A stretch of DNA of 64,000 nt from Escherichia coli (GTDB lineage: Bacteria; Pseudomonadota; Gammaproteobacteria; Enterobacterales; Enterobacteriaceae). A program made the position numbers and the translations under genes. Of this stretch, positions 35,472 to 36,057 are shown piece after piece. How positions within the stretch are numbered: position 1 is the stretch's first letter; every line of letters begins with the position of its first letter. The notes under the pieces were generated by a model. That model was not told the DNA's origin, did not search any database, and saw only the letters and a program-made list of their open reading frames with translations. The stretch lies in the NCBI RefSeq assembly GCF_003018255.1, contig NZ_CP027440.1. One strand, 5' to 3'.

Positions 35472-36057
35472 AATTTTTCCTGTCTCCAGGCCCCAAAGTA
35501 AATAATAAAAAATTCCTAAAAGTTAAGGAAAAAATATGCCCAATAAATTGGCGGTGAATGCTGATTAAAATCAAGAAAAACTGCCATTAAGACATTGAAG
35601 TTGCTGTTTTTATACGTAGATAACAAAACGCATATTTAGCGGTTGGCAAATATCACATAATAATGTGTGTAAATTGATGGTGGATTGATGCAAATTTGTT
35701 AATTGTAAGGTGTTAGCTGCGGTTGTGTGCTCAAAAAATAATCTTCCATGAGCATGAGTTGACGATACATAATATATTTTTCGTTAAGATATTTTTTATA
35801 TCTTATTAAAAAATAAAGTAATTTTTATCGGTTGTATTTTGTTATCAGAAACGACTTGGTTTTTCTTTTATGACTATTCCCATCGCAGAAAACGATGCGT
35901 TGTCTTTAATCGATGCGCGGAAATATTTATCTTGAACTAGCGGAAATAAATAGGGCAGCTATTCATATTATTCTTCATGTTGGGGCTATTGAGGTTATGT
36001 TAATTGTAGCTTTGCTATGTTAGTAGTAGATTTTTGATAAATGTTTAATGGTCACAA

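Follow-up and report, generated by a model that had tools for sequence, protein, structure and literature searches.

The dcuC-pagP spacer of a B2-type Escherichia coli very probably pairs FNR- and PhoP-dependent promoters across an H-NS-bound, fast-evolving middle

Several described classes of regulatory DNA resemble the spacer between dcuC and pagP. In class II FNR promoters such as dmsA, narG and the model promoter FF-41.5, the activator box is centred at -41.5, the -10 hexamer is weak and there is no -35 hexamer; the dcuC promoter shares all three features, and we find no material difference between it and the class. Other PhoP-activated promoters carry the PhoP box over the -35 position (architecture I/II; Zwir 2012), and the probable PhoP box of pagP is likewise a repeat of two hexamers, spaced by 5 nt, with 12 nt left to the candidate -10. 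Regions silenced by H-NS and counter-silenced by SlyA or PhoP, among them pagC, ugtL, hlyE and region 1 of the E. coli K5 capsule, are like the spacer in their GC content (31% here), in H-NS enrichment that runs into both flanking genes, in strong derepression when hns is lost, in the need for SlyA in biofilm, and in IS insertions, both natural and laboratory. Unlike these regions, pagP is ancestral and syntenic in Enterobacteriaceae and is no recently acquired island, and its spacer also holds an FNR promoter that is active and FNR-bound in the wild type. Intergenic regions that are hypervariable or 'switched' although the genes on either side are conserved have reportedly been described as well, by Oren in 2014 and Thorpe in 2018. 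The middle of the dcuC-pagP spacer is likewise a short segment with several deep alleles and divergence far above that of its flanks. In contrast to whole-spacer switching, its alleles can still be aligned as homologues, the divergence is confined to the middle 161 nt, and both core promoters are kept.

The region and its regulators are already known, having been characterised in E. coli K-12, and the spacer is ordinary save for its fast-evolving middle segment. We conclude that it is very probably a shared divergent regulatory region in which two activator-dependent sigma-70 promoters, that of dcuC relying on FNR and that of pagP on PhoP, flank a middle bound by H-NS. In the window, by which we mean the whole 64,000-nt stretch of DNA analysed, the region is 99.9% identical to Nissle 1917, and the strain is a B2-type E. 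coli. All occupancy, transcription start site (TSS) and genetic data discussed here come from K-12 and were projected onto the window through the alignment of the two. The B2 allele differs from K-12 at 48 of 588 aligned positions, one of them within the PhoP box, and the K-12 findings probably transfer to it.

On the minus strand dcuC begins with the ATG at 35469-35471, and on the plus strand pagP begins with one at 36058. The spacer between dcuC (minus strand) and pagP (plus strand) is 35472-36057, or 586 nt, and the positions of the two start codons make the interval given in the preliminary description exact. Neither the Nissle 1917 record nor that of MG1655 (NC_000913.3) annotates any feature inside it. 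The strong AT-richness noted earlier is real: the spacer has a GC content of 0.311 against 0.515 for the whole window, and the most AT-rich stretch of this length in the window is 35500-36085 (GC 0.304). No open reading frame (ORF) of 60 aa or more had been seen, and the longest in the spacer indeed has 39 aa. The further claim that this is the longest non-coding stretch is correct between intact annotated genes, ranked on the annotation of the near-identical Nissle 1917 record, where the next-longest gaps are gltI/rhomboid (453 nt), citC/dpiB (379 nt) and dsbG/ahpC (371 nt). It fails if the ybeF pseudogene fragment between lipA and lipB is called non-coding, which makes that interval 819 nt. 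Inverted repeats of at least 8 nt number only four in the spacer, and most are A/T runs, which are to be expected because the DNA is 31% GC.

The dcuC promoter of E. coli K-12 is said to have been described by Zientz in 1999, and its elements fall on the window as follows.

35472-35526, minus strand: dcuC 5' UTR of 55 nt, its TSS at 35526 taken from the mapped K-12 TSS
35533-35538, minus strand: putative dcuC -10 hexamer CATATT (-12 to -7), placed by its distance to the mapped TSS
35561-35574, unstranded: FNR box CTGATTAAAATCAA in class II activation geometry, its centre at -41.5 relative to the dcuC TSS

In K-12, SMRT-Cappable-seq maps the TSS of b0621 to 656023 (reverse strand, NC_000913.3), which aligns with window position 35526, and the centre of the FNR box at 35567.5 is exactly 41.5 nt upstream of it. 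The box fits TTGAT-N4-ATCAA at nine of ten half-site positions. The same 14-mer is the predicted, ChIP-seq-bound K-12 site 'dcuC/pagP', and dcuC was assigned to category 1, directly FNR-activated, with its TSS entered as 'not in peak region' (Myers 2013, PMC3688515 supplement). Our analysis places the box with a later TSS dataset, which settles that entry and gives dcuC the canonical FNR spacing. Core promoter and box are conserved across 24-25 Enterobacteriaceae: the -10 sits within a block, GAATGTGCCGAATAA / AAATATGCCCAATAA, conserved in 25 sequences, and the box is unchanged in all nine sequences of an alignment of three genera (alignment A1). Of 24 other species, 23 have the box too, at a distance of 85-99 nt from the start codon of dcuC. 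The box and core promoter of the B2 strain are identical to those of K-12, and FNR occupancy and FNR dependence of dcuC probably carry over. Under anaerobiosis, FNR on this box would bring RNA polymerase to the weak -10 and start dcuC at 35526.

At the other end of the spacer, the pagP promoter comprises three elements.

35987-36003, plus strand: probable PhoP box TATTGA-GGTTA-TGTTAA, which stops 12 nt short of the candidate -10
36016-36021, plus strand: probable pagP -10 hexamer TATGTT (TATGCT in K-12), aligning with the mapped Salmonella -10 TATTAT
36028-36057, plus strand: pagP 5' UTR of about 30 nt, its start near 36028 estimated from the position of the -10

A K-12 anaerobic sigma-70 ChIP-seq peak at 655742 (U00096.2) corresponds to window position 36020, on the -10, and places the promoter here. 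Judged against the direct repeat (T/G)GTTTA-N5-(T/G)GTTTA, the half-sites of the PhoP box fit at 4/6 and 5/6 positions. The box falls on conserved columns of alignment A1 and, with the -10, is conserved in Escherichia, Citrobacter and Salmonella. Its aligned counterpart in O157:H7 is TGTTAAGGTTATGTTAA, and that in E. albertii, TGTTAA-GGTTA-TGTTTA, differs from the window's in following TGTTAA-N5-TGTTTA. PhoP dependence of E. coli crcA/pagP has been reported in the literature, and the repeat is conserved in Escherichia. For the distance between PhoP site and TSS, 32 bp was given for E. coli crcA and 44 bp for Salmonella (Harari 2010), whose PhoP box and mapped -10 have also been described (Zwir 2012). 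Phospho-PhoP on TATTGA-N5-TGTTAA, overlapping the -35 position, would activate pagP from this -10. No pagP start is among those listed by Cappable-seq or SMRT-Cappable-seq under standard growth, as expected because the gene is silenced.

The spacer had been predicted to hold divergent dcuC and pagP promoters, and it does, with the FNR box at -41.5 from a mapped TSS on one side and the probable PhoP box and -10 under a sigma-70 peak on the other, each promoter within about 110 nt of its gene. A generic sigma-70 scan missed both and returned one site, inside dcuC, against 4.0 expected from shuffles. This miss is expected because the promoters are activator-dependent, and hence the scan lends no independent support. 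K-12 start-site and occupancy data, proposed earlier as a check, reveal the two known promoters, FNR and H-NS, and, among the starts listed and the sigma-70 peaks, nothing elsewhere in the spacer: the sigma-70 ChIP-seq peaks in the spacer map to window positions 35515 and 36020 only. By the refuting condition set in the preliminary description, its speculation about a small RNA or small protein fails on these K-12 data.

Silencing by H-NS, which the composition had suggested, is supported by data from K-12. H-NS ChIP-chip regions 654590-655558 and 655584-656283 (U00096.2) span the 5' end of dcuC, the spacer and pagP, so that essentially the entire spacer is covered; gSELEX flags the spacer 'HNS'; and deletion of hns raises pagP 18-fold. 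SlyA counteracts H-NS at pagP and is required for pagP induction in biofilm, RcsB/GadE also feed in, and IS5 insertions in the spacer have been selected under kanamycin. An H-NS platform would then extend over the 400 nt or so from one promoter to the other and into the AT-rich ends of both genes. It would hold pagP silent until SlyA, RcsB/GadE or PhoP counteracts the silencing or an IS insertion disrupts it. In motif scans, the high-affinity H-NS motif tCGATAAATT has only two matches in the spacer, each with two mismatches (35540 and 36034), and window-wide counts of the H-NS consensus TCGATAAATT at up to two mismatches do not exceed chance. The high-affinity motif is not obligatory for H-NS binding. 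Neither the SlyA consensus TTAGCAAGCTAA nor the ArcA consensus TGTTAATTAAATGTTA matches the spacer at up to three mismatches. With nothing above chance in the spacer for SlyA, H-NS or ArcA, these scans do not locate the counter-silencer sites. A sigma-54 promoter was considered for the RpoN/NtrC gSELEX peaks and set aside, no TGGCAC-N5-TTGCA-like element being seen near the mapped position; we treat the peak as non-specific binding to AT-rich DNA. As a separate observation, the dcuC FNR site lies inside a listed H-NS region despite the entry 'None' for dcuC in the last column of the predicted-FNR table, where other rows name a nucleoid-protein ChIP dataset (Myers 2013).

Between the two promoters, five further features can be distinguished.

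35581-35744, unstranded: upstream block, conserved in E. coli with a divergence of 3.7% (four-fold sites, 8.8%)
35673-35703, unstranded: three 11-bp-phased direct repeats, ATTGATGgtgg / ATTGATGcaaa / TTTGTTAAT
35745-35905, unstranded: hypervariable core of 161 nt, GC kept at 0.28-0.32
35770-35820, unstranded: imperfect inverted repeat with 23-nt arms (35770-35792 and 35798-35820), 78% complementary
35917-35948, unstranded: direct repeat, GCGGAAATA twice, 23 nt apart

The dcuC-side half of the middle is the conserved one and carries a direct repeat resembling response-regulator sites. Its block includes a palindrome, CACATAATAATGTG at 35654-35667, in which E. whittamii shows a symmetric change to AACATGATGATGTT. 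The three phased repeats are a candidate site for a response regulator of the OmpR/PhoB family, of ArcA or PhoP type. Their motif, (T)TGATGC-N4-5-TGTTAAT, recurs in most examined species of Escherichia, Citrobacter and the Enterobacter group at 126-146 nt from the FNR box, even though spacer length among them spans 446-911 nt; the repeat element upstream of the FNR box thus keeps its position across genera. An ArcA site has been predicted in the dcuC-pagP spacer, both genes being ArcA-dependent (Park 2013). This site may be the motif at 35673-35703, which does not match the full ArcA consensus at up to three mismatches. On the pagP side, the GCGGAAATA repeat is nearly constant in eight complete E. 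coli haplotypes, one of which has lost 1 nt from the second copy, at its 3' end.

The core departs from this pattern; it evolves very fast, would be constrained in base composition only, and may act as an H-NS scaffold. One reading of its variability is that the core versions of different lineages adjust how strongly H-NS/SlyA silence pagP, perhaps dcuC too, and for this reason persist or are exchanged, by diversifying selection or allele switching. We regard this as possible, if rather unlikely. It would account for a core divergence of 17-18% from K-12 and of 12-20% between distantly related E. coli lineages, in pairs whose flanking spacer parts differ by 0.4-6.6%; between K-12 and O157:H7, 31 of 161 core positions differ against 8 of 426 in the flanks. 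It is also favoured by the comparison of B2 with K-12, where the core reaches 17.4% against 8.8% at four-fold sites of the neighbouring genes (Fisher p = 0.0025), but this p-value is optimistic because the core boundaries were chosen after the cluster had been seen, and four-fold sites are themselves not fully neutral, given codon bias. In the same comparison the dcuC-proximal part differs by 3.3%, significantly below the four-fold sites, and the pagP-proximal part by 5.9%, not significantly different from them. No other 200-nt bin in 10 kb diverges as much as that of the core, and the AT-rich citC-dpiB spacer shows only 2.5-3.5%, which points the same way; however, DNA that is AT-rich, bound by H-NS and little transcribed may just have a higher mutation rate or evade repair. 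In 5379 genomes, two sharply split identity classes are seen for the central 261 nt (at least 95% in 1028, 80-90% in 4348, in between in only 3), and the kanamycin-selected IS5 insertions indicate that changes in the spacer can be adaptive, yet the detailed comparison covers nine E. coli haplotypes only.

A more specific form of this reading takes the core as a regulatory allele cassette, whose deep lineage-specific H-NS/SlyA scaffolds, evolving at 2-4 times the rate of synonymous sites, would set different thresholds for derepression of pagP (lipid A palmitoylation), and possibly of dcuC, in B2 extraintestinal as opposed to commensal and EHEC lineages. We consider it doubtful. If core alleles do alter pagP silencing, the spacer would offer a compact natural case of regulatory evolution at an outer-membrane remodelling gene, with a link through pagP to antimicrobial-peptide resistance and biofilm survival.

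A palindrome near 35783-35808 had been singled out in the preliminary description, with a spacer of four T. The palindrome exists, as TAAGATAT-TTTTT-ATATCTTA, with five T and an exact span of 35785-35805. It is specific to the B2 allele: K-12 has TAAGATGATTGTTGTATCTCG and other lineages differ again, so that, on the alleles compared, it is a lineage-specific feature and not a conserved operator. A template-switch origin was rejected on inspection, both arms differing from the state in K-12 and the outgroup. The surrounding inverted repeat is overlapped by a promoter predicted purely from sequence, TTAAGA-17-TAAAAA at 35784-35812 (Shimada 2014), at which K-12 ChIP shows no in vivo sigma-70 peak.

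The core might instead descend from a short element, specific to Escherichia, that was inserted or came in by horizontal transfer and has since decayed, an idea we find improbable. Spacers in Escherichia measure 558-588 nt. They exceed those of most Citrobacter (418-524 nt) and of Salmonella (391 nt) by 90-200 nt and reach almost twice the length of those in Klebsiella and Raoultella (about 300 nt), and the extra DNA maps roughly to 35715-35935. The core is mostly without an alignable counterpart in Citrobacter and Salmonella and aligns poorly with other Escherichia species. Its AT-richness and H-NS binding also resemble those of acquired DNA, but it is single-copy in E. coli genomes and has neither terminal repeats nor ORF remnants. 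The middle 406 nt find no match in a phage collection, their 'plasmid' matches being only E. coli chromosomal fragments filed as plasmids, and the Enterobacter range of 446-911 nt argues that length change is common at this locus.

A hidden small RNA, which had also been suggested, is not supported. A 295-nt sRNA, 'Ssr31', was predicted on the pagP strand of the pagP/dcuC spacer in Shigella flexneri 301 and was positive by RT-PCR (Wang 2016). That the mid-spacer encodes such an independent sRNA here is very unlikely. RT-PCR beside a transcribed gene is weak evidence, and neither a northern blot nor RACE was reported. RpoD holoenzyme binds the spacer in vitro, and the TTAAGA-17-TAAAAA promoter is predicted in it, but K-12 data from standard and anaerobic conditions show no plus-strand Cappable-seq TSS between 653077 and 656393 (U00096.2) and no mid-spacer sigma-70 peak in vivo; the sole minus-strand TSS in the spacer among the SMRT-Cappable-seq starts listed is that of dcuC. 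A terminator-like plus-strand hairpin at 35881-35897, CATCG-CAGAAAA-CGATG followed by CGTTGTCTTT, was rejected as a candidate: it has a 5-bp stem and a poor T-tract, the stem is broken in K-12-type alleles (CGATG to CGACG), and no part of the spacer evolves faster than the candidate region. In sliding RNA folds of both strands, z-scores are unremarkable except at the B2-specific palindrome (z = -3.1), leaving no conserved hairpin, and a search of all Rfam families with E up to 10 over 34900-37200 found no match in the spacer. The only real Rfam match in that interval is a cspA-type thermoregulator over cspE.

A small protein, likewise raised earlier, is extremely unlikely, since none of the spacer ORFs is kept outside E. 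coli. The spacer has several ORFs of 20-39 aa, and two on the minus strand (35455-35574 and 35516-35626) are annotated in many GenBank E. coli records; however, both are missing from current RefSeq annotation, both are named as a transporter, which a product shorter than 40 aa cannot merit, and neither is on the dcuC mRNA because both begin upstream of its mapped TSS. These points and those on Ssr31 give sequence-level grounds to dismiss the formerly annotated frames and the predicted Shigella sRNA alike. In other E. coli lineages the ATG-initiated ORFs of at least 13 aa within the spacer (23, 21, 36 and 13 aa) are broken by a lost start codon, a new stop or a frameshift. One of the candidates rejected, a 21-aa plus-strand ORF at 35870-35935 (MTIPIAENDALSLIDARKYLS), starts with ATG only in the B2 and O157 alleles and with TTG elsewhere, is disrupted in SM107 and O157:H7 and absent in E. 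whittamii and E. sp. E1V33, and its exact sequence has no match in the protein collection. Of the ORFs of at least 10 aa, only one is intact across Escherichia, a 10-codon frame lying over the conserved promoter and FNR box of dcuC; the rest fail in E. sp. E1V33 or E. whittamii, many of them within E. coli as well.

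The start codons of dcuC (reverse complement of 35469-35471) and pagP (ATG at 36058) bound a spacer of exactly 35472-36057 (586 nt) between these divergent genes. The window is B2-type E. coli: the 731 nt around the spacer are 99.9% identical to Nissle 1917, a B2 strain whose annotation we use here, and ~93% identical to K-12. The AT-rich non-coding gap of the preliminary description is borne out with small corrections. Spacer GC is 0.311, versus 0.515 for the window, and the minimum-GC stretch of 586 nt in the entire window is 35500-36085 (0.304). The spacer is also, as described, the longest non-coding stretch: between intact genes in the Nissle annotation, the next gaps are 453, 379 and 371 nt, and the lipA-lipB interval (819 nt) exceeds it only if a ybeF pseudogene fragment is taken as non-coding. 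This frameshifted, truncated YbeF-family regulator fragment is the sole content of the interval (about 39718-40536), which partly overlaps another AT-rich stretch, 40340-40925. The Nissle annotation, a PGAP annotation of MG1655 and the curated NC_000913.3 record (655969-656556) all leave the spacer empty; the last of these does include recently discovered small proteins, YldA among them. No Rfam family matched inside the spacer, even at E up to 10. The spacer finding is real and already known; the mildly new points are a hypervariable core and a conserved repeat, and nothing else.

Features of the dcuC-pagP spacer (window coordinates)
35472-35744: dcuC-proximal segment; 3.3% divergence from K-12, below the 8.8% baseline (p = 0.002)
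35745-35905: core; 17.4% divergence from K-12, above the baseline (p = 0.0025, boundaries post hoc)
35906-36057: pagP-proximal segment; 5.9% divergence from K-12, no significant difference from the baseline
-12 to -7 relative to the dcuC transcription start: CATATT
35561-35574: FNR box, the 14-mer CTGATTAAAATCAA, identical to the Myers 2013 site
35673-35703: three 11-bp-phased direct repeats ending in TGTTAAT, in the conserved left (dcuC-proximal) half of the spacer
35987-36003: probable PhoP box TATTGA-GGTTA-TGTTAA, conserved columns upstream of pagP
36016-36021: candidate pagP -10 element TATGTT, 12 nt after the PhoP box, conserved columns

Both promoters expected in the spacer are present. 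Anaerobic sigma-70 ChIP-seq in K-12 (Myers et al., 2013) has two spacer peaks, at 655235 and 655742 (U00096.2), which map to window 35515 (dcuC promoter) and 36020 (pagP promoter), with none between. The dcuC (b0621) transcription start identified by SMRT-Cappable-seq, 656023 on the reverse strand, aligns with window 35526, which puts the FNR box (midpoint 35567.5) at -41.5, where class II sites canonically lie. The same 14-mer was predicted as an FNR site with a ChIP-seq peak, labelled 'dcuC/pagP', and dcuC is among the operons directly activated by FNR (Myers et al., 2013). The divergent gene order is retained in Escherichia, Citrobacter, Salmonella, Enterobacter, Raoultella and Klebsiella. 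In the cross-genus alignment, no non-coding columns are better conserved than those of the FNR box and the core-promoter block (GAATGTGCCGAATAA-like). Of 24 other species, 23 have the box at 85-99 nt from the dcuC ATG. This conservation supports the predicted assignment, and in the features we tested dcuC has a class II FNR promoter.

The pagP end is consistent with a PhoP-activated promoter whose box sits at -35. E. albertii has a near-consensus PhoP box at these positions (TGTTAA-GGTTA-TGTTTA), and the candidate -10 lines up with TATTAT, the pagP -10 located by S1 mapping in Salmonella. Transcription probably starts at about 36028. The distance from PhoP site to transcription start is 32 bp in E. 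coli crcA (pagP) versus 44 bp in Salmonella (Harari et al., 2010), consistent with an E. coli box that is one helical turn nearer the -10.

H-NS silencing, which had been proposed from base composition, is supported by K-12 data. H-NS ChIP-chip regions 654590-655558 and 655584-656283 (Myers et al.) span the 5' part of dcuC, essentially all of the spacer and most of pagP, with a 26-bp gap near 35836-35862, and the spacer was likewise flagged as H-NS-bound by Shimada (2014). A pagP-lacZ fusion is derepressed by hns insertions, hns deletion raises expression 18-fold, and SlyA is a counter-silencer of pagP (Chalabaev, 2014); RcsB and GadE have been added to its regulation (Szczesny, 2018). The Cappable-seq list contains no plus-strand start within 653077-656393 (U00096.2); under standard growth, pagP is silent and no plus-strand sRNA promoter fires. 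The whole region fits one that is H-NS-silenced and counter-silenced. Insertion sequences can relieve H-NS silencing. In strain 23AR1101 an IS5-family ISKpn26 stands in place of most of the spacer (NZ_CM132250.1, 4199-5179), and in strain E41-1 an IS1 lies directly upstream of pagP (NZ_CP028483.1, 814-1161). IS5 insertion into the spacer was repeatedly selected in kanamycin-exposed laboratory populations (PMC6307192). These insertions would be consistent with IS-mediated relief of silencing.

Divergence within the spacer is concentrated in its middle. Our baseline, four-fold degenerate sites of six flanking genes, differs by 8.8% between the window and K-12. The bin 35703-35902 (16.3%) tops a 10-kb scan against K-12; the similarly AT-rich citC-dpiB spacer diverges by 2.5-3.5%. 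The second-highest 200-nt bin, 31903-32102 in dpiB, reaches 9%. The core effect extends beyond the comparison of B2 with other strains: K-12 and O157:H7 differ at 31 of 161 core positions versus 8 of 426 in the flanking spacer. Among 5379 genomes, the central 261 nt match at >=95% in 1028 and at 80-90% in 4348, with 3 in between. The core is single-copy. Most of it cannot be aligned with anything in the spacers of Citrobacter or Salmonella, which are for the most part 90-200 nt shorter, and even against E. whittamii or E. albertii the alignment is poor. A phage collection held nothing related, and the only plasmid-collection matches were pieces of E. coli chromosome listed as plasmids. The simplest reading is that the core is composition-constrained filler acting as an H-NS scaffold; GC is 0.28-0.32 in all core alleles. 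There are at least four alleles, each diverged from the others, and these could also represent a regulatory allele cassette, which we consider improbable. Four-fold sites of pagP (36058-36618) differ from K-12 at 14.3% (11/77), versus 7.5-9.4% in dpiB, dpiA, dcuC and crcB; in this small sample, high divergence may run on from the core into pagP.

The repeats at 35673-35703 contain a core, (T)TGATGC-N4-5-TGTTAAT, whose distance from the FNR box is fixed at 126-146 nt in most of the species compared from Escherichia, Citrobacter and the Enterobacter group, despite variable spacer length. Park (2013) predicted an ArcA site in the spacer, without a ChIP peak, and reported lower expression of dcuC (4.1-fold) and pagP (2.8-fold) in an arcA mutant. 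The predicted site may correspond to the repeats, which have no match to the full ArcA consensus; we suspect ArcA or another OmpR-family protein as their regulator. Separately, pagP mRNA is about 3.4-fold higher anaerobically, and the sigma-70 signal at its promoter appears to be specific to anaerobic growth (37 vs 366, Myers comparison table). With the arcA effect, this suggests oxygen-/ArcA-linked pagP control outside the usual PhoP/H-NS account.

The suggestion that the spacer hides a small RNA or small protein is not supported. The only published hint is Ssr31, a computationally predicted 295-nt sRNA on the pagP strand of Shigella flexneri, positive by RT-PCR alone. In the K-12 data the spacer shows no plus-strand start and no sigma-70 peak between the promoters, and it has no Rfam match and no conserved terminator; the stem of the single terminator-like hairpin (35881-35897) is 5 bp long and interrupted in K-12-type alleles. 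We traced every ORF >=10 aa through eight E. coli haplotypes and two further Escherichia species; the only one intact throughout was a 10-codon frame over the conserved dcuC promoter and FNR box. A 21-aa ORF has its ATG in B2 and O157 alleles only and is disrupted in SM107 and O157:H7, two of these eight haplotypes, and a 36-aa ORF meets a stop at codon 6 in K-12. Two minus-strand ORFs, of 39 aa (35455-35574) and 36 aa (35516-35626), carry the name 'C4-dicarboxylate ABC transporter' in many E. coli and Shigella entries of GenBank; each starts upstream of the mapped dcuC start, and RefSeq has dropped both. The Nissle locus tags between dcuC and pagP omit RS20900, suggesting that a call was withdrawn there. 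We found the marks of neither an sRNA gene nor a small-protein gene.

Fold z-scores on both strands of the spacer are unremarkable apart from the palindrome (-3.1). The palindrome noted near 35783-35808 is real, and its form needs correction: it reads TAAGATAT-TTTTT-ATATCTTA at 35785-35805, within an imperfect inverted repeat with 23-nt arms. It lies in the hypervariable core, is present in the B2 allele only and is derived there; K-12 and outgroups share GTATCTC where B2 reads ATATCTT.

Downstream of pagP, the Rfam cspA thermoregulator (RF01766) matches at full length over the cspE 5' UTR and coding region (36602-37050, plus strand; 136 bits, E = 2.7e-36). Cappable-seq places a very strong plus-strand start (score 431) at U00096.2 656590, by our coordinate conversion about 75 nt into the coding sequence of cspE; this may reflect mismapping between csp paralogues or a coordinate problem. 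The ybeM homologue (about 37532-38320), a deaminated glutathione amidase gene, is a frameshifted pseudogene in K-12 and is intact in Nissle 1917, which is near-identical to the window over the part compared.
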